Source: a virus. From it: DNA of 48,220 nt. The position numbers and the translations under genes are program-made. Shown here in pieces: positions 2,043 to 40,950 of this stretch (within the stretch, counting starts at the first letter, position 1; each line of letters starts with the position of its first letter). The stretch is taken from the IMG/VR virus record IMGVR_UViG_3300009285_000016, positions 1 through 48,220 of that record, one strand, 5' to 3'. A model generated the notes under the pieces. The model had not been told where the DNA came from, made no database searches, and was given only the letters and a program-made list of their open reading frames with translations.

Positions 2043-2890
2043 AAGCAATAACTTTATACAAACTTACAAACCAAAACCTGCAAACACATGGTGGTTATCA
2101 ATGGGAACTTGGAGTATGGAAAAGTGCGCCCGGAAATGGGGAGCTTTGTTCTACTAGCTGGCTGCATGCTTATGAATCGCCAGAATTGGCAGTACTACTA
2201 AATCCAATTCATGGTCGAATAAAGAATCCGTTACTGTGGCGTGCAGAAGGTAAGGGGAAGGGTTTAGACGATAACGGGCTGAAATGTGGCGTTACTAAAT
2301 TGCGCTTGCTGGAACAAGTAATCATGCCTGTTTACACGCCAGTGCAAAAAGCAGCTTTTAGTATTTATTGTGCACTATTTGTTTTTCAGGACAAAAATTT
2401 TATAGCATGGGCAGAAGCTTGGCTCGCTAGAAAAAACAGAACTGCTTACGCTGCTGCTGCTGCTAATGCTGCTGCTTACACTGTTGCTGCTGTTGCTACT
2501 AATGCTGCTATTGCTTACGCTAATGCTGCTGTTACTGCTGCTACTGCTTACGCTGCTGCTACTAATGCTGCTAATACTGCTGCTACTGCTACTAATACTG
2601 CTACTGCTTACGCTGCTGCTGTTACTGCTGCTACTGCTTACGCTACTGCTGCTGCTAAGGCTGCTGCTAATGCTGCTGCTAATACTACTGCTGCTGTTAC
2701 TGCTGCTACTGCTTACGCTGCTTACGTTGCTACTGCTGCTGCTACTGCTGCTGCTGCTAATACTGCTGCTAATACTGCTACTAATGCTGCTAATGCAGCT
2801 TCCGTTGCTAATGCAGTTTCCGCTGCTGTTACAACAGAAGCAGCATTTATACTGCAATTAGCTGCGGAAGCTGCAAAGGATATAACATGA
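2039..2890 (+). CDS. Two-part protein (283 aa): globular N-terminal domain plus an approximately 130-aa Ala/Thr/Asn/Tyr low-complexity repeat region
   Basis: ATGA-coupled start. The N-terminus reads YKLTNQNLQTHGGYQWELGVW...LCSTSWLHAYESPELAVLLNP. The C-terminal half is A-A-x-A-A-type repeats, with AAVTAATAYA present three times. Confidence 0.7.
   Translation: MKAITLYKLTNQNLQTHGGYQWELGVWKSAPGNGELCSTSWLHAYESPELAVLLNPIHGRIKNPLLWRAEGKGKGLDDNGLKCGVTKLRLLEQVIMPVYTPVQKAAFSIYCALFVFQDKNFIAWAEAWLARKNRTAYAAAAANAAAYTVAAVATNAAIAYANAAVTAATAYAAATNAANTAATATNTATAYAAAVTAATAYATAAAKAAANAAANTTAAVTAATAYAAYVATAAATAAAANTAANTATNAANAASVANAVSAAVTTEAAFILQLAAEAAKDIT
2441..2831. repeat. GCT-rich coding low-complexity/tandem repeat region; an exact 30-mer gctgctgttactgctgctactgcttacgct occurs 3 times (2525-2554, 2615-2644, 2690-2719)
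   Basis: Read directly. All three forward/reverse frames stay open here (Ala-, Leu- and Ser-rich ORFs in the track), which is typical of a trinucleotide-biased repeat. Confidence 0.85.
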
Positions 2891-3078
2891 ACTTTACAGG
2901 AGAAAGCCAAGCGGAATTTCTGTTTAGAAGACTTGTTCTTGTACGTAATATGGTTCAAAACGCAGTTACTTACTGCGGTTTAGACAAAGATAACGTAGGA
3001 CAATTTCTTTTAGAGAATATCTTGCGCATTGTAGACGAAGGCTTGCGGATTGTGAAAAGCGAAGACAACATCAAATGA
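2887..3078 (+). CDS. Hypothetical early protein (63 aa)
   Basis: ATGA overlap with the upstream gene, same strand, dense packing. Confidence 0.5.
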   Translation: MNFTGESQAEFLFRRLVLVRNMVQNAVTYCGLDKDNVGQFLLENILRIVDEGLRIVKSEDNIK

Positions 3079-3263
3079 CACCAAACACTAAACAAAAAAT
3101 TGATGCTACACTCGCGAAGTTTCGCGTACAGCGTTGGAAAACTCAAGTTTTTACAACGCAGCTTGAAGAACTGAAAAAGCGTCTTACGATACGCTACCCA
3201 ACAGCACCGAAGGAATTTATCACGCAAAAAGCAAAACATTTACTTTACCGCGTTAGTAATTAA
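3075..3263 (+). CDS. Hypothetical early protein (62 aa), basic
   Basis: ATGA overlap with the upstream gene. Confidence 0.5.
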   Translation: MTPNTKQKIDATLAKFRVQRWKTQVFTTQLEELKKRLTIRYPTAPKEFITQKAKHLLYRVSN

Positions 3264-3287
3264 CGCAGAGAATTAAGGAGGAGGCTT

Positions 3288-5024
3288 ATGAGTTCTGTAG
3301 AGATTACAGCCAAAACACAGAAAGCACGCGGAATTCAAGCTTTGTTAACCGACCCAGTACTTAAATACTTCACTCCATACATAATAGTTAGACCAGCCGC
3401 ATCAAAAAAAGCTTTAACGCATTTTGAGGGCTTTCCGAGCTTTGTCCGTCCGTGTCCTAAAATACCTAGACACGGTTTTGTAGATAGTCGAGTTGTAAAT
3501 ACTTTAGAAGAATTTGAGACCTTACGGCAAGAAACACTGCGTGAAGATGTTGATGCTGAACTTTTGTTCATGACCGAGATACAGGCTGTTGCTTCGGCAA
3601 TTTTTCTACCCGAACAAGGTTACCTCATTCTTGGACCAAGCAACGACGGTGCAACAAAGGGTTATGAAACGAAAATTTTATCTCTCGTTTCAACACAGCT
3701 TTCAAGTAGTTTAAAAGAAAAAGCTGGAATTACGCAAACTCCTTTCTTGGAAATTGTTTACTCGTTGGAAAAACCATATTTTGTTCAGTTACGTGATGGG
3801 CCTACGCCACCGCTTGAAACGTCTTTAGATTTTATACCCCACAAAACACGTATTGCGGAGATAGTGGCGCCTGGAGATGATTTGTTGGCTTTTGAAAAGC
3901 TTGCAGTAAAACTTAAAGGGCGTCGAGATGTAGTTGTTATGCAAGTCGGAGCTTCTCTTGCGTGTCATGCGGCAATTCATTGCGTGATAAATGCAATTCC
4001 CTTTGTGTGTTCACGAAAAGTAGTTATAGGCGAACAGTTACTTCCTACGCGACGTAGAAAAGTTGTGAAAAAGCTAGTACGCACTGAATTGTATGCTGGA
4101 ATTGATTTTGCACAAACGCAATTAAGAACTAATGTTAATAAAAACGCTTTATTCTGGTTTGTTACTGCTGTTTTACATAATTGGGCAGCACTACGAGAAA
4201 CTGAACATGGGGCACGTTTACTAGCAGCAGCAGTTACTATTTTTCTTGCGTACGGTGCAGCGTCTTGTATAGGCGAACTTCGTCATTCGAAGAAAAAAAT
4301 AAAGCCTCTAACGCGCTCTTATTACTATGAAGAAGTTTTTGCTAATGCAGTAAAATCTTGGCGTGGTTTTTCAGGATGCAGCAAAAAGTTTGCTGACGGA
4401 ACTTTGTGGAGCAACGGTTATGGTGGGGCTACCTGGCTAGTTTGTAGTATGGCGTGTACTACAATTTTAAAAGCATTTTCCGTTTTGGTTAATAGTAAAG
4501 CAACTTCATTTTCTAGAAAAAAGCTTGATAAGGTGGCGAGTACGCTTAATAACGCTGTAAATCTTGCACATAATAATGGTTGGTGGCTAAACAAAATTGT
4601 TTCAGATTCACAGTTAAATTTTGTAGCAAAGCACGCTGGTTTGCATGCGGCTAATAATGGTGCACAACTTTTTAAAGCACTTACACATACAGACGCGCCT
4701 GTAATTAAAGTACCATGTGTAAGAAACTTTAAAAAGCTTAAAGTTGCAACACGTAAACTTATTGCTGCGCAAGTTCGTATTCTTAGCCCAGACAAGCTAC
4801 GATTTCAGTTGCGCTTTTCTAACTCTTCGTGGGAAGAAACAGATTTTACTGTTTCAAGGCCGTTATCTAACTTGCTTTTTACAAACGTAGAAAAAAGTTT
4901 TGCAAACACAAACCAACTTTACACGTCTTGTGTACTCAGTACATACGGAATTTTTCTACAACAAATCCTTTTGATTAGTTACGAAGAACTTTCTCTAAAA
5001 CTTGGTTTTTCAGTGGAGGTTTAA
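3288..5024 (+). CDS. PEP-utilising-enzyme-like phosphotransferase (dikinase-like, 578 aa): ATP-grasp (PPDK_N-like) N-terminus, phosphohistidine swivel motif, novel C-terminal domain
   Basis: Strong SD (AAGGAGGAGGCTTATG).
- FVRPCPKIPRHGFVDSRVV, LLFMTEIQAVASAIFL...GPSNDGATKG and YFVQLRDGPT parallel the vRSSa..ED..sFAGq, vlVQ.mv...SGV...GlGe.vV.G and ilQ.RP.T blocks of PPDK_N.
- GRRDVVVMQVGASLACHAAIHCVINAIPFVCS matches the GG.tSHaAIvaRe.giPaVvg swivel motif; the putative catalytic His227 codon is at 3966-3968.
- Residues from about 250 to 578 show none of the PEPS/PPDK TIM-barrel motifs I know. Confidence 0.6.
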   Translation: MSSVEITAKTQKARGIQALLTDPVLKYFTPYIIVRPAASKKALTHFEGFPSFVRPCPKIPRHGFVDSRVVNTLEEFETLRQETLREDVDAELLFMTEIQAVASAIFLPEQGYLILGPSNDGATKGYETKILSLVSTQLSSSLKEKAGITQTPFLEIVYSLEKPYFVQLRDGPTPPLETSLDFIPHKTRIAEIVAPGDDLLAFEKLAVKLKGRRDVVVMQVGASLACHAAIHCVINAIPFVCSRKVVIGEQLLPTRRRKVVKKLVRTELYAGIDFAQTQLRTNVNKNALFWFVTAVLHNWAALRETEHGARLLAAAVTIFLAYGAASCIGELRHSKKKIKPLTRSYYYEEVFANAVKSWRGFSGCSKKFADGTLWSNGYGGATWLVCSMACTTILKAFSVLVNSKATSFSRKKLDKVASTLNNAVNLAHNNGWWLNKIVSDSQLNFVAKHAGLHAANNGAQLFKALTHTDAPVIKVPCVRNFKKLKVATRKLIAAQVRILSPDKLRFQLRFSNSSWEETDFTVSRPLSNLLFTNVEKSFANTNQLYTSCVLSTYGIFLQQILLISYEELSLKLGFSVEV

Positions 5025-5831
5025 ATGTCAACACAGGAAATTGGTTTTCAAAGTTATTTAAACAACAATAATGTTGCGCCTTATAAGCGCGAAAATTATC
5101 AACAATGGGAGCCTATCAAAAAGTGTCTTCACACGCCAACGCTTTTGTTTTCTAGAGAGCATGTAAATTACTACATTGCAGCAAAACCAGACAGATTAGA
5201 TAAAGCACCAAAAAATGCTGTGTATGTTTCGTTCTGTGGTGATTATCTCAATAACCATCCTGTTGTCGTCGTACATGACGCACGCTTTTTAGGGTTAGAA
5301 GAACAGAGCGTACAGTACAGCGTACCTGCCTTGTGTGTAGATTGGTCAGATTTTGATGTTCCAGCGTTGAAAAAAACTTTTTGGCGTGTGTTGCACGAAA
5401 AGTTGGCTGCGCTTGACCCAAAAGAGGTTAATGTGGTTTTCTACTGTGCGGGTGGTCATGGGCGTTCAGGCACCGCAATAACTGCTATGTTGATAGACGG
5501 AACTTGGAACACTGACGAAGCTTTGGAGTATGTAAGAAAAGGGCATTGTAAAAGCACGGTAGAAACTTCAATACAAGAAGATTATCTTTACCAATTAGAT
5601 TTTGAACTAAATGGGAGAAAAATTCCGAAAAAGGAATCTGTTGTAACAACATATTCTACAACTCCTTCTAGCCCAACACATAAGTTAACAAAGCGTGAAA
5701 AGAAAGAACGTAGAAAGTTGTTGTGTGAGCAGTGGAATGGCAATAAAACGGAGCCGGCTTTTACTGTCGACTTAGATGGAGGCGTAACAGATTCAAACCA
5801 TTACAATGCCCCTGAATGGTGGCGGGAGTAG
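5025..5831 (+). CDS. Cys-X5-Arg phosphatase (PTP/dual-specificity phosphatase superfamily, 268 aa)
   Basis: The signature VVFYCAGGHGRSGTAITAML is the C-x2-G-x-G-R-S-G-T P-loop (Cys141 codon at 5445-5447, Arg147). A candidate general-acid region DWSDFDVP lies about 30 aa upstream. The start ATG abuts the upstream TAA (TAAATG), with GGAGG inside the upstream gene. Confidence 0.75.
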   Translation: MSTQEIGFQSYLNNNNVAPYKRENYQQWEPIKKCLHTPTLLFSREHVNYYIAAKPDRLDKAPKNAVYVSFCGDYLNNHPVVVVHDARFLGLEEQSVQYSVPALCVDWSDFDVPALKKTFWRVLHEKLAALDPKEVNVVFYCAGGHGRSGTAITAMLIDGTWNTDEALEYVRKGHCKSTVETSIQEDYLYQLDFELNGRKIPKKESVVTTYSTTPSSPTHKLTKREKKERRKLLCEQWNGNKTEPAFTVDLDGGVTDSNHYNAPEWWRE

Positions 5832-5835
5832 AAAC

Positions 5836-6270
5836 ATGAAGAAAGCAGAGTTAGAACTTGCAAAACTTGTTGTAGATGTGCCCTCTACGGAACTTTCACA
5901 GAATGTGGTGAAACTTGTTTTAGACATGGCGTTATTAACGACTTTACTGTCTGGAGCAGAAAGCTACTGTAAAACGGCTATTAAAACGACAGAAAAACTT
6001 TGTAGCGTTGCGTCGGAAAAGGACCGCATAGTGCTACAAAGTTTTCTTGAAAATTTAAGGTTTGTCACTACCTTAATCAAAGAAGCTTGGTTTACAATAG
6101 TTACTGACTACACCGAAACTTTCGGTTCGCTTTCAGCACCTTGCGAATGTATTTCACTAAGTTATACAGAAGCACTAATAAACTTTTTGTCAAAGAAAGA
6201 GGTTCAAGAAAACGTTGTAAACTGCGGTTTAGATGCTTATCAACTTAAAAGAGAGCTTGATAGTAAGTAA
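5836..6270 (+). CDS. Hypothetical helical protein (144 aa), third gene of the dikinase/phosphatase cassette
   Basis: ATG at 5836 after GGGAG, only 4 nt after the phosphatase stop. No recognisable motif. Confidence 0.55.
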   Translation: MKKAELELAKLVVDVPSTELSQNVVKLVLDMALLTTLLSGAESYCKTAIKTTEKLCSVASEKDRIVLQSFLENLRFVTTLIKEAWFTIVTDYTETFGSLSAPCECISLSYTEALINFLSKKEVQENVVNCGLDAYQLKRELDSK

Positions 6271-6430
6271 AGATTTTCAAACTCTTTACCGCAGACAGGA
6301 CAAAAATGTTTTCCCTCTTGCAGTTCGATGATTACTATAACAAAACTGTGCTTACAGAAATCACAGCACCATTGAACTGCAAGTTGAGGAATCACCACAC
6401 AAATTTTATCGTTTAAGGAGACATAAAGCA

Positions 6431-6610
6431 ATGCAAACTTATCCGCGTTATAAAAATTCTGCCCCGGCGCATATCCTTTGTACTTGTCCGCCAGATAGCT
6501 ATAAAAGGTTTCGACAAAACGTACCTCAGCTAGAAACGGTAGAAAACAACAAACCCGTCTCCAAAATTGTGGTGCCTTTGGCTACGTTTTGGGACCCAGA
6601 ATACTACTAA
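6431..6610 (+). CDS. Small hypothetical protein (59 aa; below the ORF-track cutoff)
   Basis: Hand translation gives MQTYPRYKNSAPAHILCTCPPDSYKRFRQNVPQLETVENNKPVSKIVVPLATFWDPEYY*. The ATG is preceded by AAGGAG at a 10-nt spacing. Confidence 0.5.
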   Translation: MQTYPRYKNSAPAHILCTCPPDSYKRFRQNVPQLETVENNKPVSKIVVPLATFWDPEYY

Positions 6611-6621
6611 AAGTGCAGACC

Positions 6622-6801
6622 ATGACTAAGCTTAAATTTAAACCAAAGATTGATACAGCGCACCTAAAGCGTTGGTTGCGGAAAGCAAAAGCATTGACAA
6701 GAAGGTTCGATACCGAGGAATGTACTATTTTGGGTCAGAACCTTGCTTATGACATCATAAAAATACTTGCCCAGAAAGGATGGGAAAGCCGTTATGATTG
6801 A
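6622..6801 (+). CDS. Hypothetical protein (59 aa)
   Basis: First ATG in the 6589-6801 ORF (the track start is TTG). SD is weak and the start is uncertain. Confidence 0.45.
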   Translation: MTKLKFKPKIDTAHLKRWLRKAKALTRRFDTEECTILGQNLAYDIIKILAQKGWESRYD

Positions 6802-7081
6802 AACTACAAAAAGAGTGAACTGGATACGTGAATGCGCTTTGAGTTGTCAAGAGTGTCCACATGATGAGACTGGCTGTACTGACTTATGTCAAATGTTAGG
6901 AGCCTATGATTTTGTGAAAGCAAAGTACTACGGCATGCAGGACCGCGCAGAGCAAGCAGAGGCTGAACGTGAGGAGCTGGCTGAGATATTGGAGGATTTA
7001 ATTACAGAAGCGGCGGAAGTATTGCCAGATAACTGTGAAGCGCTCAAGGTCGCGCTTACTGCGGTGAGTAAGAAGCCATGA
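6794..7081 (+). CDS. Hypothetical Cys-containing protein with an acidic C-terminus (95 aa)
   Basis: ATG at 6794 follows AAAGGATGGGAAAG. The track start at 6767 is TTG. Confidence 0.5.
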   Translation: MIETTKRVNWIRECALSCQECPHDETGCTDLCQMLGAYDFVKAKYYGMQDRAEQAEAEREELAEILEDLITEAAEVLPDNCEALKVALTAVSKKP

Positions 7082-7362
7082 AAACCCAAGTTTCAAAGCG
7101 TTTAGGGAAGACGGCCCAAGACCACGACCACATAACATGGAAGCCAGTGCAGCTTTCAAATGGTAAAGTAATTTCTTGTGGTATCTGTACTTGTCTTAAT
7201 TTTTGGAAAGATTTACATGGCGAGGATGAAAAAACTCGTGCATGGTGGCTAGGATTTAATCCGCCGCGTAAATTGCGTCTTGCAACAGAAAGTATTGTAA
7301 AGCGTATAGAACGACGCAAGAAAAGAAAGGAAGCGCGAAATGACAGGCCGAGAAGCACGTAA
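7078..7362 (+). CDS. Hypothetical basic protein (94 aa)
   Basis: ATGA overlap with the upstream gene. Confidence 0.5.
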   Translation: MKTQVSKRLGKTAQDHDHITWKPVQLSNGKVISCGICTCLNFWKDLHGEDEKTRAWWLGFNPPRKLRLATESIVKRIERRKKRKEARNDRPRST

Positions 7363-7519
7363 GTGTTATGAGGAAATTTGTCAGCAAGCAAAACTTGAAT
7401 ATGAAGACCGTCTTGAACGTGCTGTAGATAAATATAAAGCAGCACTTTCAAATGCCTGGGAAGTTTACAAACAAAACTCGCTTCAGATAAAGGAGGAACC
7501 AGATGAAAAACTTGTTTAA
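7340..7519 (+). CDS. Small hypothetical coiled-coil protein (59 aa; below the ORF-track cutoff)
   Basis: Hand translation gives MTGREARKCYEEICQQAKLEYEDRLERAVDKYKAALSNAWEVYKQNSLQIKEEPDEKLV*. AAAGGAAG lies upstream. It fills an otherwise empty 140-bp stretch. Confidence 0.45.
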   Translation: MTGREARKCYEEICQQAKLEYEDRLERAVDKYKAALSNAWEVYKQNSLQIKEEPDEKLV

Positions 7520-7823
7520 ATTTGTGCTGTTATATTCTTTAATGGCGGTTGTTTTTATTTTGCCACTAGGTGTTGTGCTATTCTTTTCATATCTTACGCC
7601 ATGGGCGCTGCTAGCATTACTAATTGTACTTCCTTATACAGTAGGCGTGCTTGTGTGGTGGGGCAGGGTACCGCCTAGTAAGAAGCCGCTATTGTCACAA
7701 GTTTATTTCTGTGTAGAGTGTCAAGGCGTTGTGCCTGATATTGCTAAACGCGGTAAAGACCCTGTTTACAGCGCATATATTTGCACCTGCACGCAGATTT
7801 ACAACGATTTGCAGTACAAATAA
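7503..7823 (+). CDS. Membrane protein (106 aa, two predicted TM helices) with a C-terminal Cys cluster
   Basis: Strong SD (AAAGGAGGAACCAGATG). Hydrophobic stretches FVLLYSLMAVVFILPLGVVLFF and WALLALLIVLPYTVGVLVWW. Confidence 0.65.
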   Translation: MKNLFKFVLLYSLMAVVFILPLGVVLFFSYLTPWALLALLIVLPYTVGVLVWWGRVPPSKKPLLSQVYFCVECQGVVPDIAKRGKDPVYSAYICTCTQIYNDLQYK

Positions 7824-7978
7824 TGGTGTATTGGCAATGGTACTTGTTACTTTTGTTTGCTGTACCGCCCGTTAGTCTCTTTACTGCCGGGTTTCTTTAT
7901 GGCTTTTTACAAGGATTGGAGAAAGCATGGACTTTTTATCAGAAGAAGCTTTTAGAAGAGGAGAAGAAAGACATGTAG
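7823..7978 (+). CDS. Small membrane protein (51 aa)
   Basis: TAATG overlap with the upstream stop. Hydrophobic segment WYLLLLFAVPPVSLFTAGFLYGFL. It overlaps the next ORF by 52 nt, so confidence is moderate. Confidence 0.4.
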   Translation: MVYWQWYLLLLFAVPPVSLFTAGFLYGFLQGLEKAWTFYQKKLLEEEKKDM

Positions 7979-8328
7979 TAGGTACGAAGAAACGACACAT
8001 ACTCACCTACAAAAGTCTCGCTCTGGACGATTCAGACTCATATATAAATAAACACGGAAAAGTACGTACTCTTAAAGATATGTCGAGCACCGAAATAGCA
8101 GCGCTGGAAGTTCAATACGGTTGTAAAGTGCTACCAAAAACGTTTGTGGCGAAAGCCCCCAAGAAACAGCGGATTGTTGCGTGTTCAACTTGCGGCAAAG
8201 CTTTCGCGCGACAAAATGTCTATAATACTTGGATGGGCAATTCAAAAGATTGTGCGTCGTGTAGAGGGAAGAAACAACACGCAAAACGAAAGGGGAAGGC
8301 TTATGACCGCACTGCTAATCGCCTTTAG
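7927..8328 (+). CDS. Hypothetical protein with a C-terminal CxxC...CxxC zinc-ribbon-like motif (133 aa)
   Basis: GGAGAAAGCATG start. Motif CSTCGKAF...CASCRGK. Confidence 0.55.
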   Translation: MDFLSEEAFRRGEERHVVGTKKRHILTYKSLALDDSDSYINKHGKVRTLKDMSSTEIAALEVQYGCKVLPKTFVAKAPKKQRIVACSTCGKAFARQNVYNTWMGNSKDCASCRGKKQHAKRKGKAYDRTANRL

Positions 8329-8452
8329 AGATTTTCTAGACGCTAACAACAGCTTTGTATTGCTGTTTGTTTCTGTAATCTTTGGTTTTGCTATGGGGAA
8401 GTGTAACGAAAATATTCCGCGTCTCTGTAGGAAATGTCGTGAAGATAGGTGA
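8303..8452 (+). CDS. Small membrane protein (49 aa), tentative
   Basis: ATG at 8303 after AGGGGAAGG. TM-like segment SFVLLFVSVIFGFAMG. This is the internal start of track ORF 8144-8452. Confidence 0.35.
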   Translation: MTALLIAFRDFLDANNSFVLLFVSVIFGFAMGKCNENIPRLCRKCREDR

Positions 8453-9461
8453 AATTATAGTTCCGAAGAAGTTTGTGTGGCCGCCACCACTTCTTGAGGA
8501 TTGGTGTGCTCAAGTAGACTCTGAACCAACTCCAGAGTGGTTACTAAAGAATCTTGTTCCAGCAGATGCTGCAATTATTATGTCGGGCATTCCCAAGCTT
8601 GCATTCAAGACCTGGTTTGCGTTTCAAATGGTGCGTGCGTTAGCGTCTGGACAAAAATTGGCTGCTTTAGAGCCCGTTAAACCTGTGCGTTGTCTCATCT
8701 TAGAACTTGAAGGTCCGCGAAAACAAACGCGGTCGCGATGGCGGCTTTTAGAAAATGGGGACGGGTTAGGTATACCGCCTGGTATGATTTATTTTGTGCA
8801 CCGTTACCCAATTATGTTGGATAATATAGATTGGTGCCAAAAAATCTGTCAGCTTGTAGCGGAAAAGGAAATCAAATTTGTCGTGATTGATACTCTTGCG
8901 CGCGCTAACGCAGGTGATGAAAATTCTGCACAAGACATGAGCATTGTTATGCGTGCCCTGGACCAAATACGCTTGGCGTCTATGGGTTGTAGCGTGATGT
9001 GGTTGCACCACCTTACAAAAGAGGAATGGAGTCGTAAAACAGGTAAGCCTATTGATAAGGACATCGACCAAGAAGTACGTGGTAGTACTGTTTTGATGGG
9101 TGGCTATGACGTTCACTTTGCGTTTCGTCGTAAGGTAATTGACTCACGTGCTTTGCTGCTTACAGTACGTCACAAAGATGACGAAGAGTGCTACTTTAAT
9201 GTGTACTGGGATTTTGAAAAGGAGACTGCTGCCGCGCAGTTAAAAATGGTGGCACTTAATCCCAACGTTCCAGACCAACAAATGCTTGAACATTGTTGCG
9301 GATTGTTACTTCCAGACCAAGAGTACACAATGGGGCAACTTATTCAACAATGGGAAGTGCCACACAGCATTGCCGCCGCTATGATACGTAAGTTACTTGA
9401 AGATGGGTTGATGAAACAAAAAGGAAAAAACTTCTTTTTAGAGGAAGAGGAGGAGCCGTGA
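8439..9461 (+). CDS. RecA-fold ATPase of the RepA/AAA_25 type (DnaB-like helicase-loader class) with an atypical P-loop
   Basis: Walker-B/sensor region KFVVIDTLARANAGDENSAQDMSIVMRALDQI and VMWLHHLTKEE match the AAA_25 pattern (lvviD.l....gdeN / vllvHHt.K). The P-loop position reads SGIPKLAFKT (8583-8612) instead of GxxxxGK[ST]. Start is uncertain: GTG at 8439 after AGGAAA, versus TTG at 8382 in the track. Confidence 0.6.
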   Translation: MKIGEIIVPKKFVWPPPLLEDWCAQVDSEPTPEWLLKNLVPADAAIIMSGIPKLAFKTWFAFQMVRALASGQKLAALEPVKPVRCLILELEGPRKQTRSRWRLLENGDGLGIPPGMIYFVHRYPIMLDNIDWCQKICQLVAEKEIKFVVIDTLARANAGDENSAQDMSIVMRALDQIRLASMGCSVMWLHHLTKEEWSRKTGKPIDKDIDQEVRGSTVLMGGYDVHFAFRRKVIDSRALLLTVRHKDDEECYFNVYWDFEKETAAAQLKMVALNPNVPDQQMLEHCCGLLLPDQEYTMGQLIQQWEVPHSIAAAMIRKLLEDGLMKQKGKNFFLEEEEEP

Positions 9462-9838
9462 AACAAGTAAAAATTTGGTCACGTTCATATTTAGAACATG
9501 CGGCAGGTACGAGTTATTCCCATGTAGATGTTCCGGCTTGGGGACCGTGGAATTACTTTGTTCAAGTGGATGACGGCACTCCAGGAGAAAAGTATTGTTT
9601 TGTAAAGGGATTACCTATTTCTAAAGACGAGCAGCTTTGGGAACGTAAAGTGCTTATCAACTTATTTTTTGGTAATCTTCATAACTCTAAATTTTGGGAA
9701 GACGTTATTTCAAGCGTTATATTACCAGACATTCCTCCAATGCACACTAAAGATAATAAGAAAGAAGTTGGTTGCCGTTGTGACATCTCACAACTTTGGA
9801 ACGGCTTTGGACACAATGAAGGTTGCTCCGAAAGGTAG
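9458..9838 (+). CDS. Hypothetical protein (126 aa)
   Basis: GTG start after GGAGGAG, overlapping the upstream stop. Confidence 0.55.
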   Translation: MKQVKIWSRSYLEHAAGTSYSHVDVPAWGPWNYFVQVDDGTPGEKYCFVKGLPISKDEQLWERKVLINLFFGNLHNSKFWEDVISSVILPDIPPMHTKDNKKEVGCRCDISQLWNGFGHNEGCSER

Positions 9839-9840
9839 AC

Positions 9841-10209
9841 GTGCCTTACAGTTGTGAAAAATGTGGTTTAAACTTTGCTATAGGCTTCTGCTTTACGTGT
9901 GGACCAAGTGCCACAAGAAAGATTTTGCCAATGTACGATTCGATTAATCATCCTTTTCACTACACTTCAACAGCGTTTGAGGTTATTGATGTTATCGAAA
10001 ACTTTAGTCTTGGTTTTTGTCTTGGGAATGTCATGAAGTACATCCTACGTGCCGGAAAGAAAGTACATGTTAACGAGATTGAAGACTTAAAAAAAGCGGC
10101 GTGGTACCTACAAAGGCACATAGAACAGCGTAGTAAAGAGTTAAAAACCGCTTTTTACCGCGTTGACGATACAGAATCGACAGCAAACGAATTGCTTTTA
10201 CGTCGTTGA
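9841..10209 (+). CDS. DUF3310 (SaV-like) domain protein with an N-terminal zinc ribbon (122 aa)
   Basis: INHPFHYTSTAFEVIDVIENF...GNVMKYILRAGKK...EDLKKAAWYLQRHI matches the conserved hPsHY...id.ie...gn.iKYl.Rag.K...eDl.KA.wYl pattern of DUF3310. CEKCG...CFTCG lies at the N-terminus. GTG at 9841 follows AAAGGTAG. Confidence 0.65.
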   Translation: MPYSCEKCGLNFAIGFCFTCGPSATRKILPMYDSINHPFHYTSTAFEVIDVIENFSLGFCLGNVMKYILRAGKKVHVNEIEDLKKAAWYLQRHIEQRSKELKTAFYRVDDTESTANELLLRR

Positions 10210-10329: not shown

Positions 10330-10575
10330 GTGGCAAAAGAAAAGCAGAAGAATCCTTATGTGCGACAAAGCATGTCCGTTGCACTATCGCGTAAGGAAAT
10401 TGACGCAATACGTTTAATGGCTGACCGTGCTAAGCTTTCAGTGAGTGATTTTATCCGTCGCTGTATAGATATGGCAGGACACAGAATTAGCGGTATTGAA
10501 CATGAACCACTGGCTTATCGTGGACCACGAGAAGAAGTTAAATCAGAACTCGAAAGTGAATGGGAGTTGCTATGA
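10330..10575 (+). CDS. Ribbon-helix-helix (CopG/MobC-like) DNA-binding protein (81 aa)
   Basis: GTG start after GGGAGG. MSVALSRKEIDAIRLMADRAKLSVSDFIRRCI fits the RHH beta-strand/helix/helix pattern (v.ls..e...l...A...g.s.SdfiR). Confidence 0.6.
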   Translation: MAKEKQKNPYVRQSMSVALSRKEIDAIRLMADRAKLSVSDFIRRCIDMAGHRISGIEHEPLAYRGPREEVKSELESEWELL

Positions 10576-11474
10576 ACGTTTCTGGTTACCCTAAAGTTTG
10601 GAACGTGGGGCACGGCGAGCTTGTTAAGTTACTGTTTGATGACGTTCTTGTTGAAGAAAAGATAGATGGCTCACAATTTTCGTTTTGCAGGAGCGGCGAA
10701 GAACTTTTTATGCGCAGCAAAAATGCGGAAATTTTTGTGGATGCGCCAGAAAAGCTCTTTGCCAAAGCCGTAGAAACTGTAAAAGAGCTTGCGCCGCTAC
10801 TTGTTTCAGGCTGGGTTTACCGTGCAGAGTATTTAAGAAAGCCGAAGCATAACGTATTGGCTTACTCTAGAACGCCCTTTAAGAACCTTATTCTATTTGA
10901 CGTAGAAGACAAAACTAGATTTTGTTTACGCGGGCCACAAAAAGCCGAAGAAGCTGCGCGTCTTGGACTAGAATGTGTGCCCACGCTCTACTACGGAAAA
11001 CTTAAAAGCATTGAAGAGCTTAAGGTGCTGCTTGAAAAGGAATCTATTTTAGGAGGCGTGAAGCTTGAGGGTGTCGTTATCAAGAACTACACATGCTGGG
11101 GAAGAGACGGAAAGTTCCTTGCAGGTAAGTATGTTTCAGAGGCTTTCAAAGAAATTCATACCGAAGAATGGAAGAAGCAGAACCCACAAAAAGCGGACGT
11201 AGTTCAAGCCCTTATCGTCAAATTTAGCTCTGAAGCTCGGTGGCAGAAAGCTGTTCAACATCTAACAGAAACGAGCAGACTCGAAAACTCTCCGCGTGAC
11301 ATTGGCAAGTTAATGCTTGCTGTACAACAAGACGTGGAAGAAGAATGTACAGAAGAGATTATGCAACGCTTGTTTGATTGGGCGTGGCCACAAATAAAGC
11401 GTGCCGTGTGTGGCGGTTTGCCACAGTGGTACAAAGAACAGCTTCTTAAGAGCCAGTTTGAAAAACCACAATGA
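10572..11474 (+). CDS. ATP-dependent RNA-ligase-like nucleotidyltransferase (Rnl2/PF09414-type, 300 aa)
   Basis: - N-terminal YPKVWN.
- Motif I EEKIDGSQ (Lys30 codon at 10659-10661), which is the KxDGS RNA-ligase form rather than the DNA-ligase KxDGxR form.
- Motif III-like WVYRAEYL, motif IV EGVVIKNY, motif V LAGKYVSEAFKE. Confidence 0.65.
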   Translation: MNVSGYPKVWNVGHGELVKLLFDDVLVEEKIDGSQFSFCRSGEELFMRSKNAEIFVDAPEKLFAKAVETVKELAPLLVSGWVYRAEYLRKPKHNVLAYSRTPFKNLILFDVEDKTRFCLRGPQKAEEAARLGLECVPTLYYGKLKSIEELKVLLEKESILGGVKLEGVVIKNYTCWGRDGKFLAGKYVSEAFKEIHTEEWKKQNPQKADVVQALIVKFSSEARWQKAVQHLTETSRLENSPRDIGKLMLAVQQDVEEECTEEIMQRLFDWAWPQIKRAVCGGLPQWYKEQLLKSQFEKPQ

Positions 11475-40944: not shown

Positions 40945-40950
40945 CGAGGG

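Follow-up and report, generated by a model that had tools for sequence, protein, structure and literature searches.

What could two adjacent phage genes accomplish together if one encodes a dikinase-like enzyme and the other a protein tyrosine phosphatase (PTP)? The question is raised by IMG/VR virus record IMGVR_UViG_3300009285_000016, a metagenomic contig of 48,220 nt from a podovirus-like phage that was analyzed over its whole length (further called the window). Near its start, three genes are packed head to tail, which an earlier note on this DNA had proposed to form a candidate phospho-cycling cassette of a dikinase-like enzyme (gene 1), a PTP-type phosphatase (gene 2) and a helical partner (gene 3). 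The dikinase-like character of gene 1, the PTP in gene 2 and the conservation of the pair stand, whereas gene 3 falls outside the module and an accompanying analogy with glucan phosphorylation finds no support. Genes 1 and 2 constitute a module of obligate partners carried by phages and integrative elements. Gene 1 is probably a compact, highly divergent phosphotransferase of the dikinase type, combining an ATP-grasp domain and a swivel-type histidine domain with a new acceptor domain, and gene 2 is predicted from its sequence to be a catalytically complete PTP-type phosphatase that relies on Cys141, Asp109 and Gln184. That the dikinase-type enzymology of gene 1, the phosphatase in gene 2 and the obligate pairing hold jointly is, in our estimation, rather likely; this estimate excludes the idea of a nucleic-acid end as the substrate, which is discussed below.

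The pairing was followed across 51 loci, 48 of them from IMG/VR and three on contigs retrieved through protein identity, with most viral neighbourhoods covered over +/-6 kb only. In a first pass, most gene 1 homologues were directly followed by a gene for a protein with a CxGGHGRTG motif, in many cases overlapping by 4 nt. A six-frame search with a hidden Markov model locates the phosphatase next to the gene 1 homologue in 50 of the 51 loci, the lone locus without it (L025) lying on a contig cut off within gene 1. L001, the closest relative at 51% identity, has a truncated downstream open reading frame (ORF) that is 64% identical to gene 2. The order of the pair is reversed in one locus (L017) and divergent in another (L039). 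The pair is also present in the complete 41-kb GenBank genome MW202742 and in every further contig examined. Moreover, the pairwise distances of the two proteins show a strong correlation across 38 non-redundant loci (Mantel r = 0.73, a value reached in 0 of 2000 permutations), at median identities of only 28% and 25%. Obligate adjacency and co-divergence at such low identity therefore indicate that, over a very long period, the two genes have been passed on as one unit, by descent and by exchange. The pair thus passes the check on conservation in relatives that the earlier note had set for it.

The third gene does not share this history. An all-versus-all clustering of neighbours in 49 loci yields no conserved family besides the phosphatase and no conserved third gene. 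Gene 3 (pI 5.0) matches no Pfam, PHROG, NCBIfam or PADLOC family; its only relatives are 82-86% identical, and it is absent from all other loci compared. Gene 3 is thus a local add-on, translationally coupled here and located outside the conserved module, so that the suggested co-occurrence of three genes reduces to that of the pair and the 144-aa 'helical partner' is no longer counted as a cassette member. The tight packing that had been read from the sequence is borne out at all three genes (Table 1). The gene 1/gene 2 junction is GGAGGTTTAAATG, in which the TAA stop is immediately followed by the ATG (TAAATG) and which includes a GGAGG; the gene 2/gene 3 junction is GGGAGTAGAAACATG, with a gap of 4 nt. 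A scan for promoters and terminators around the cassette returned nothing above shuffled expectation.

Table 1. Positions of the cassette genes, their putative domains and motifs, and the RNA ligase gene in the window.
Feature	Position	Strand	Basis and remarks
Shine-Dalgarno sequence AAGGAGGAGG	3275..3284	+	Strong; just 5' of the gene 1 ATG at 3288; read from the sequence
Gene 1, 578 aa, putative dikinase-like phosphotransferase, unannotated family	3288..5024	+	ORF
Gene 1, ATP-grasp nucleotide-binding domain, residues 1-185	3288..3842	+	Foldseek; invariant K12, R54, E155, Q167, R169
Gene 1, predicted swivel-type phosphohistidine domain, residues 186-262	3843..4073	+	hhalign; His227 codon 3966-3968; His231 also invariant
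Gene 1, all-helical basic domain, residues 263-470, presumed phosphate-acceptor (substrate) site	4074..4697	+	AlphaFold sub-model, alignment
Gene 1, small beta-rich C-terminal region, residues 471-578	4698..5021	+	Poorly conserved
Gene 2, 268 aa, predicted Cys-based PTP-type phosphatase	5025..5831	+	ORF and Pfam/profile matches
Gene 2, P-loop YCAGGHGRSGT, residues 140-150	5442-5474	+	Cys141 codon 5445-5447
Gene 3, 144 aa, small acidic protein	5836..6270	+	ORF; alternative ATG at 5806 gives 154 aa
RNA ligase (PF09414), 4.3 kb downstream of the cassette	10560..11474	+	phrog_548 E = 1e-22; PF09414 E = 2.9e-11

By Pfam criteria, gene 1 belongs to no named family. A word-indexed search yields at least 143 homologues, mostly with 25-35% identity across residues ~6-450, and an exhaustive profile search (E <= 1e-30) brings the family to ~957 clusters at 50% identity. 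An alignment of 73 sequences contains 28 invariant columns (Q11, K12, F52, R54, P55, C56, P57, P60, H62, G63, F64, S67, E91, G116, G121, T123, G125, E155, Q167, R169, H227, H231, E330, G379, G380, W383, H428 and N429). The blocks on which the dikinase assignment was originally built start at residue 52 (FVRPCPKIPRHGFVDSRVV), 92 (LLFMTEIQAVASAIFL), 116 (GPSNDGATKG), 164 (YFVQLRDGPT) and 215 (VVVMQVGASLACHAAIHCVINAIPFVCS), exactly where the earlier note had them, and His227 of gene 1 and Cys141 of gene 2 were numbered correctly as well. These blocks are more than chance resemblances, as they coincide with invariant columns of the family alignment. Domain fusions in the homologues give few further clues. 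Informative domains are limited to an occasional hexapeptide-repeat region and zinc ribbons, with a few homologues carrying an N-terminal hexapeptide-repeat (LbH) domain, and no gene 1-gene 2 fusion occurs among 120 homologues.

The AlphaFold2 model of gene 1 has a predicted local distance difference test (pLDDT) score of 86.6 and a predicted template modelling (pTM) score of 0.83. When compared with the PDB by Foldseek, its ~180 N-terminal residues match ATP-grasp enzymes (E ~1e-4, probability 1.0), with D-Ala-D-Ala ligases, synapsin and carbamoyl-phosphate synthetase (CPS) on top, which agrees with the ATP-grasp domain claimed before. The domain is small, ~185 aa compared to ~340 aa in the phosphoenolpyruvate (PEP) synthase PpsA. 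Its E155-x11-Q167-x-R169 block aligns weakly with the 'EW..VQARP' block of PpsA (hhalign E = 0.056 local, 9e-4 global), and the 12-residue spacing between E155 and Q167 equals that in sequences from Haloarcula, Rhodococcus, Bacillus and Ilyobacter. The block lies directly upstream of the swivel match and is collinear with PpsA, where it closes the ATP-grasp. We take E155, Q167 and R169 to be the counterparts of the Mg/phosphate ligands E323, Q335 and R337 of the Clostridium symbiosum pyruvate phosphate dikinase (PPDK). The putative equivalences of K12 with GGK and of R54 with VRSS follow from motif order alone, hhalign lending them no support.

The swivel domain was approached by hhalign against E. 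coli PpsA and seven plasmid-borne PpsA, rifampin phosphotransferase (RPH)-like and PPDK-like proteins. A single region of the gene 1 family aligns with PpsA, namely residues 192-243 with the swivel segment, so that His227 coincides with the catalytic His421 (E = 0.0029 against a single sequence; 3e-4 against seven). The score is 33.6, compared to a maximum of 18.2 and a mean of 13.4 over 60 column shuffles and to 9.8 for the reversed alignment. Both sides share the pattern V..V...D..WE....(G/A)xV..GG..(S/C)H.AI.A.L.IP. The swivel phosphohistidine that had been placed at His227 is thus aligned to the catalytic histidine of PEP synthase and invariant in all 73 sequences, at the level of remote homology only.

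Several observations weigh against reading gene 1 as a dikinase-type enzyme. An hmmscan of gene 1 against Pfam-A returns no family at E <= 1, PF01326 (PPDK_N) and PF00391 (PEP-utilizers) included, so the Pfam comparison by which the dikinase assignment was to be checked came out negative. The homologues carry no relevant Pfam domain either (0 of the 120 with precomputed annotation have PF01326 or PF00391). Likewise, gene 1 retrieves no PDB entry by sequence, neither as a single sequence nor as the 73-sequence profile. The best fold matches of its ATP-grasp domain are ligases (Ddl, CPS) and no dikinases. The hhalign probabilities are modest (23-40%), and a Foldseek search with residues 181-482 against the PDB retrieved no swivel domain. 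Consequently, without a Pfam match the kinship with dikinases is a distant one, drawn from profile, fold and motif evidence, and the swivel assignment, its fold being unconfirmed by Foldseek, stays at the remote-homology level. Searches with gene 1 in NCBIfam and PADLOC and among functionally annotated PHROGs were also empty, and a fold search of the full model against BFVD returned generic ATP-grasp proteins only and no full-length viral relative.

The remainder of gene 1 lacks the PEP/pyruvate TIM barrel, as the earlier note had it: no Pfam match points to one, and the model comprises an all-helical domain followed by a small beta region. The helical domain is modelled confidently (sub-model pLDDT 92.6) and has no solved analogue, the best PDB match by Foldseek over residues 181-482 being at E = 0.28. 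It contains the invariant residues E330, G379, G380, W383, H428 and N429 and the near-invariant H297, R332, H333, R343, N421 and K436. Its median pI across the family is 9.3, versus ~6 for the other two domains. Most homologues align just to ~residue 450, and in the C-terminal region the pLDDT falls below 50 at residues 530-563.

For gene 2, the PTP/dual-specificity phosphatase identity claimed before is supported from three sides, by a Pfam match above the cut-off, by invariant P-loop, Asp and Gln residues and by profile matches to PDB chains at E ~1e-12. The Pfam match is to Y_phosphatase (21.2 bits vs a cut-off of 20.9), with weaker matches to DSPc, PTP-SAK and Tc-R-P. In 38 homologues taken from the neighbourhoods of gene 1 relatives, the residues C34, D109, W120, C141, H145, G146, R147, G149, C175, E180 and Q184 are invariant, and the segment DWSDFDVP aligns with the WPD loop (WPDFGVP) of PTP10D. 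With a nucleophile, a general acid, a P-loop Arg and a Q-loop Gln, gene 2 therefore appears to be a hydrolytically complete PTP. The family profile matches SsoPTP-like archaeal PTPs, ShufPTP, DUSP23, receptor PTPs, Cdc14 and PRL in the PDB, down to E = 3e-12, with the best scores (E = 3e-12 to 5e-12) for DSP-family, ShufPTP and RPTP-epsilon chains. PF22784 (PTP-SAK) is the best Pfam model for 36 of the 38 family members (E <= 1e-3, best 4e-11). Gene 2 itself reaches 19 bits against this model, below the gathering score of 27, and several neighbourhood homologues have unmarked PTP-SAK matches. PTP-SAK denotes the phosphatase domain found in RNA-repair proteins of the 'Swiss Army Knife' type (PMC9503650; the name also occurs in the description of PF18143).

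Gene 2 shares with the small archaeal and bacterial PTPs, DUSP23/VHZ and PTP-SAK the HCX5R(S/T) P-loop, an upstream general-acid Asp and an ET..Q motif. Unlike the small PTPs, its family has a C-x-G-G-H-G-R-T-G loop, the extra invariant residues Cys34 and Cys175, and variable extensions: homologues range from 147 to 552 aa, with diverse extensions of up to ~480 aa. C34 lies in a 'CHH'-like motif and C175 in 'YC..AVE', both invariant in 38/38 homologues. This suggests a metal site or a redox switch, which would be atypical of small PTPs. The best PHROG for gene 2 (phrog_17568; E = 1.8e-11) is labelled 'thymidylate synthase'. No domain evidence backs this label, which was rejected and looks like a carried-over annotation error.

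How does the module relate to characterized systems? Like PEP synthase and PPDK, gene 1 has an ATP-grasp directly followed by a putative swivel domain, in which GG-x-x-(S/T/C)-H-A-A-I is aligned residue for residue with His227; an E...Q-x-R block at the end of the ATP-grasp aligns weakly with theirs. Unlike these enzymes, it lacks PF01326 and PF00391 matches, has an ATP-grasp of about half the size, carries a basic helical domain instead of a TIM barrel (PF02896 is not matched), is phage-encoded and is always paired with a PTP. To our knowledge, alpha-glucan water dikinase (GWD) together with SEX4, LSF2 or laforin is the only well-known pairing of a dikinase-class kinase and a CX5R dual-specificity phosphatase on one substrate. 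In this plant/animal system, the His domain precedes a C-terminal ATP-grasp and the genes are not physically linked, whereas in gene 1 the ATP-grasp is N-terminal to the His domain and genes 1 and 2 are adjacent and phage-borne. Carbohydrate-binding modules (CBMs) are found neither in genes 1 and 2 nor in 38 phosphatase homologues and 32 long gene 1 homologues. The proposed glucan analogy is not backed by a CBM or any other feature. T4 Pnkp provides another comparison, as it is a phage kinase and phosphatase acting on different ends of one substrate, in which a P-loop kinase and an HAD (DxDxT) phosphatase are fused. The module may be seen as analogous to T4 Pnkp with RNA ligase, being an obligate phage kinase and phosphatase in a window that encodes an RNA ligase. 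Unlike T4 Pnkp, genes 1 and 2 have neither a P-loop kinase nor an HAD/DxDxT domain, and the linkage to a ligase is sporadic.

RPH and HpeHI consist of an ATP-grasp, a swivel His and a substrate domain that is not a TIM barrel, and phosphorylate a hydroxyl with release of AMP and inorganic phosphate (Pi) (PMC4844700; PMC12167813). Gene 1 appears to follow the same three-station logic as RPH and the two-component small-molecule dikinases HpeHI and phenylphosphate synthase. Unlike in RPH, where the swivel is C-terminal and comes after the rifampin (RIF)-binding domain (a B. cereus RPH-like protein of 868 residues has its His motif at 822), the predicted swivel of gene 1 directly follows the ATP-grasp. 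Moreover, the acceptor fold of gene 1 is unrelated to those of RPH, HpeHI and phenylphosphate synthase as far as Foldseek tells, and these enzymes have no phosphatase partner. VadK (Rv1127c) of M. tuberculosis shows that a PPDK-derived scaffold can lose the metabolic third reaction and retain histidine autophosphorylation for a new use (PMC13400623). Unlike gene 1, VadK can be recognized as a homologue of PPDK, is encoded by a cellular genome and lacks a phosphatase partner. Judged by sequence criteria, gene 1 is not a member of PEP synthase, PPDK, RPH, HpeHI or VadK, and its substrate domain is new. The pairing of genes 1 and 2 has not been described previously in the literature found, which spans phage dikinases and phosphatases, PTP-SAK, DSP-PTPase and PRTRC; within this searchable literature, the earlier remark that no characterized phage system of such composition was known still stands.

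The carriers of the pair range from ~40-kb podoviruses to contigs of 290-480 kb resembling jumbo phages. A blastn search of the cassette against GenBank phages gives no match, and tblastn finds only four near-identical Manatee Spring podoviruses, in which the protein is annotated as 'hypothetical protein'. When bacteria and archaea were scanned with one genome per species and a single narrow peptide pattern, only five cellular loci were found (in Acidobacteria, a Chloroflexi metagenome-assembled genome (MAG) and a Salinarimonas MAG). The pair family lives in phages and integrative elements and, within the reach of this narrow pattern, is almost absent from cellular genomes. In phages, the pair neighbours early and replication genes, such as those for a PD-(D/E)XK nuclease, an AAA_25 helicase-primase, Sak4 and ERF. 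In three integrative or mobile elements of bacterial genomes (L062 10001-17331, L067 10001-15944 and L074 9597-15894; Acidicapsa ligni included), it is found beside a PRTRC ubiquitin-like cassette with Prok_Ub, Prok-E2_D, ThiF/E1 and PRTRC_E genes. In L074, it is even inserted between the Prok_Ub gene and the remainder of that cassette. This adjacency may indicate a functional link or a shared location in a 'leading region'.

A jumbo-like group (L063 1-21917, L065 1-21905 and L066 1-21788) comprises contigs of 177-481 kb, one of which is deposited as a Promethearchaeota MAG contig. Near the pair, they encode RNA-related functions (aminoacyl-tRNA synthetases, a CCA-adding enzyme, RNA ligase, an AAA_33 kinase and peptidyl-tRNA hydrolase) as well as Band_7, DHH, NAPRTase, NAD synthase, nicotinamidase and ADP-ribosylglycohydrolase. 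Two other loci (L035 and L039) turned out to be parts of one viral contig, IMGVR_UViG_3300005077_000007 (108,596 nt), on which the kinase gene is present as two diverged copies that are separated by ~9 kb and point in opposite directions. L039 has more than one phosphatase-family ORF (2393-3265 and 3253-4371).

In the window, the cassette lies near the start of an early/replication block that occupies ~1-19.6 kb of the + strand and includes a primase-helicase (8382-9461), the RNA ligase, an SNF2 helicase, a PD-(D/E)XK nuclease, a Sak4-like ATPase and a family A DNA polymerase. The structural block (terminase, portal, major head protein and tail genes) is encoded on the - strand. Among the window ORFs scanned, an RNA ligase is present and no Pnkp-type kinase or phosphatase is recognizable. 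The ligase may be a functional partner of the pair, which would then supply its ligatable ends.

How might the module work? We infer a phosphohistidine mechanism, a direction of transfer and a common substrate, arranged in three steps. ATP would bind to the N-terminal ATP-grasp via K12, R54, E155, Q167 and R169, upon which His227 would be (pyro)phosphorylated. The swivel would then carry the phosphate from His227 to the basic helical domain (E330, R332, H333, R343, W383, H428, N429 and K436), where it would be passed to a hydroxyl of an anionic substrate, with AMP and Pi as the expected products. Finally, the PTP of gene 2 would take off a phosphate in the same pathway, likeliest at another position of the same substrate. 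Two different positions are presumed because a kinase and a phosphatase acting on the same site would merely hydrolyse ATP. The pair would be expressed from the early/replication operon, and its role probably lies in host take-over or counter-defence. In this way, two 'hypothetical proteins' become a defined module with predicted catalytic residues that can be mutated (His227; Cys141, Asp109 and Gln184), in a family of ~1000 clusters at 50% identity that is nearly all from phages and mobile elements and has no Pfam, NCBIfam, PADLOC or functional PHROG annotation. The module would then widen the known chemistry of the dikinase class and, were its substrate a host defence product, broken RNA or a host protein, represent a new counter-defence or take-over mechanism.

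As to the substrate, our leading guess, speculative and in itself rather unlikely, is that the pair heals broken RNA or DNA ends. Gene 1 would act as a 5'-OH kinase and gene 2 as a 3'- or 2',3'-phosphate phosphatase, replacing T4 Pnkp and feeding the downstream RNA ligase. Spelled out, which leaves it just as tentative, gene 1 would be an AMP-forming phosphohistidine polynucleotide kinase with a fold-novel basic domain and gene 2 a PTP-type 3'- or cyclic-phosphate phosphatase, carried against damage by anticodon or defence nucleases. Hints in this direction are the RNA ligase in the window, the RNA ligase, CCA-adding enzyme, AAA_33 kinase and Band_7 in the jumbo-like group, and the affinity of gene 2 to PTP-SAK. 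The pair would then constitute a third, non-orthologous route to RNA/DNA end repair. The genomic contexts weigh against it. An RNA ligase occurs within +/-6 kb in only about one of 40 other viral loci (one RNA_lig_T4_1 match among 142 neighbour proteins), and in the complete 41-kb genome MW202742, itself a carrier of the pair, the annotation includes none. The jumbo phages already encode an AAA_33 kinase beside their ligase, and the copies in integrative elements accompany a ubiquitin-like cassette and not RNA-repair genes. In addition, among solved structures, gene 2 has its nearest relatives in protein tyrosine phosphatases and not in enzymes of the RNA 5'-triphosphatase type. A family-wide linkage to RNA ligase was accordingly downgraded to a sporadic one. 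DNA hypermodification with phosphorylated hydroxymethyl-pyrimidines was considered as well and rejected, as the window ORFs scanned contain no thymidylate-synthase-like or hydroxymethylase gene.

The same relatives of gene 2 (SsoPTP, ShufPTP, DUSP23, receptor PTPs and Cdc14) would fit a protein kinase and protein phosphatase acting on host or phage proteins. In this alternative, which we consider rather unlikely, gene 1 would modify Tyr, His or Ser residues of the host machinery much as T7 Gp0.7 does, and the PTP would serve to limit, reset or redirect this phosphorylation or to remove phosphotyrosine made by the host. The WPD-like Asp and the Q-loop of gene 2 are as in classical PTPs, and the early position of the pair is in line with such a role. 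Phosphorylation of a phenolic OH is feasible for the dikinase class, as HpeHI demonstrates (PMC12167813), and with VadK a PPDK descendant has turned into a regulatory autophosphorylating kinase (PMC13400623). On the other hand, enzymes with independent targets would not be expected to show strict adjacency and deep co-divergence, and a kinase and phosphatase on the same site of a protein would run a futile cycle. Moreover, no protein-interaction domains are recognized in the gene 1 and gene 2 homologues scanned, and the acceptor domain is strongly basic across the family.

The target could instead be a small molecule or a polysaccharide, as the earlier note had proposed among other options. 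Candidate targets would be an immune signalling nucleotide, an NAD or ADP-ribose metabolite, an antibiotic-like compound or, in a GWD/SEX4-like cycle, glycogen or an envelope glycan. The Gly-rich loop G379/G380 at a helix N-terminus and the conserved Arg, Lys and His residues would suit a phosphorylated small ligand. NAD-salvage and ADP-ribose genes abound around the pair in the jumbo phages, and the LbH domain of a few homologues is typical of sugar-nucleotide and acyl transferases. Characterized dikinases with a third domain other than a TIM barrel, such as RPH and GWD, also act on small molecules or glucans, and so does HpeHI (PMC12167813). We nonetheless judge this alternative clearly unlikely. 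Neither a CBM nor any other ligand-domain match was found in gene 1, gene 2 and 70 homologues, the NAD-related neighbours are confined to one related group of jumbo phages, and the helical domain resembles neither the RIF-binding domain nor another PDB fold. An obligatory phosphatase also has no evident reason to accompany the inactivation of a signal.

The absolute co-occurrence, translational coupling and co-divergence of the pair would equally be expected from subunits of one enzyme, with gene 2 working inside the phosphotransfer chemistry. Relays from a swivel His to a Cys exist in the sugar phosphotransferase system (PTS), from EI to EIIB. In a similar way, gene 2 could accept the phosphate on its Cys and hand it to a target bound by its variable extensions, which are as diverse as if they carried specificity; alternatively, it could hydrolyse the gamma-phosphate or reset phospho-His227. 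The unusually small ATP-grasp of gene 1 would fit such assistance. We regard this as improbable, since the invariant Asp109 and Gln184 are hallmarks of hydrolysis and the two genes are not fused in any of 120 homologues. Finally, it is highly improbable that gene 1 is a ligase of the ATP-grasp type (carboxylate-amine or peptide-modifying) combined with an unrelated helical domain and a convergent resemblance around His227. In favour of this reading, Ddl, VanA, PsnB, MdnC and synapsin are the best Foldseek matches, and PPDK_N, PEP-utilizers and a Foldseek swivel match are missing. Against it, the one region that hhalign aligns with PpsA is precisely the segment of the catalytic His, at a score far above shuffles and directly after the 'VQxR' strand of the ATP-grasp and collinear with PpsA, with His227 invariant in a GG-x-x-S-H context, and an obligate phosphatase partner suits a phosphotransferase better.

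Some further features of the window were noted. The G+C content is 0.39-0.41 over positions 4001-8000, which comprise the cassette and the following small early genes, versus 0.45-0.50 in most of the genome. An ORF at 2039-2890 (+; 283 aa) has an N-terminal match to DUF7666 (E = 5.7e-5), below the threshold. Its tail of ~150 residues is of low complexity and rich in Ala, Thr and Asn (AAANAAAYTVAAVATNAA...), which gives rise to spurious long ORFs in alternative frames and on the complementary strand. A 128-aa protein encoded at 9823-10209 (+) matches the C-terminal part of many 'nucleotide kinase' PHROGs (phrog_236; E = 5e-28). This label is probably misleading because the match spans only a small non-kinase domain of those PHROGs. 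Directly downstream of the portal gene, at 40948-41023 (-), ARAGORN reports one tRNA-like gene ('tRNA-???', anticodon 'gg'), which may be spurious or an unusual tRNA.

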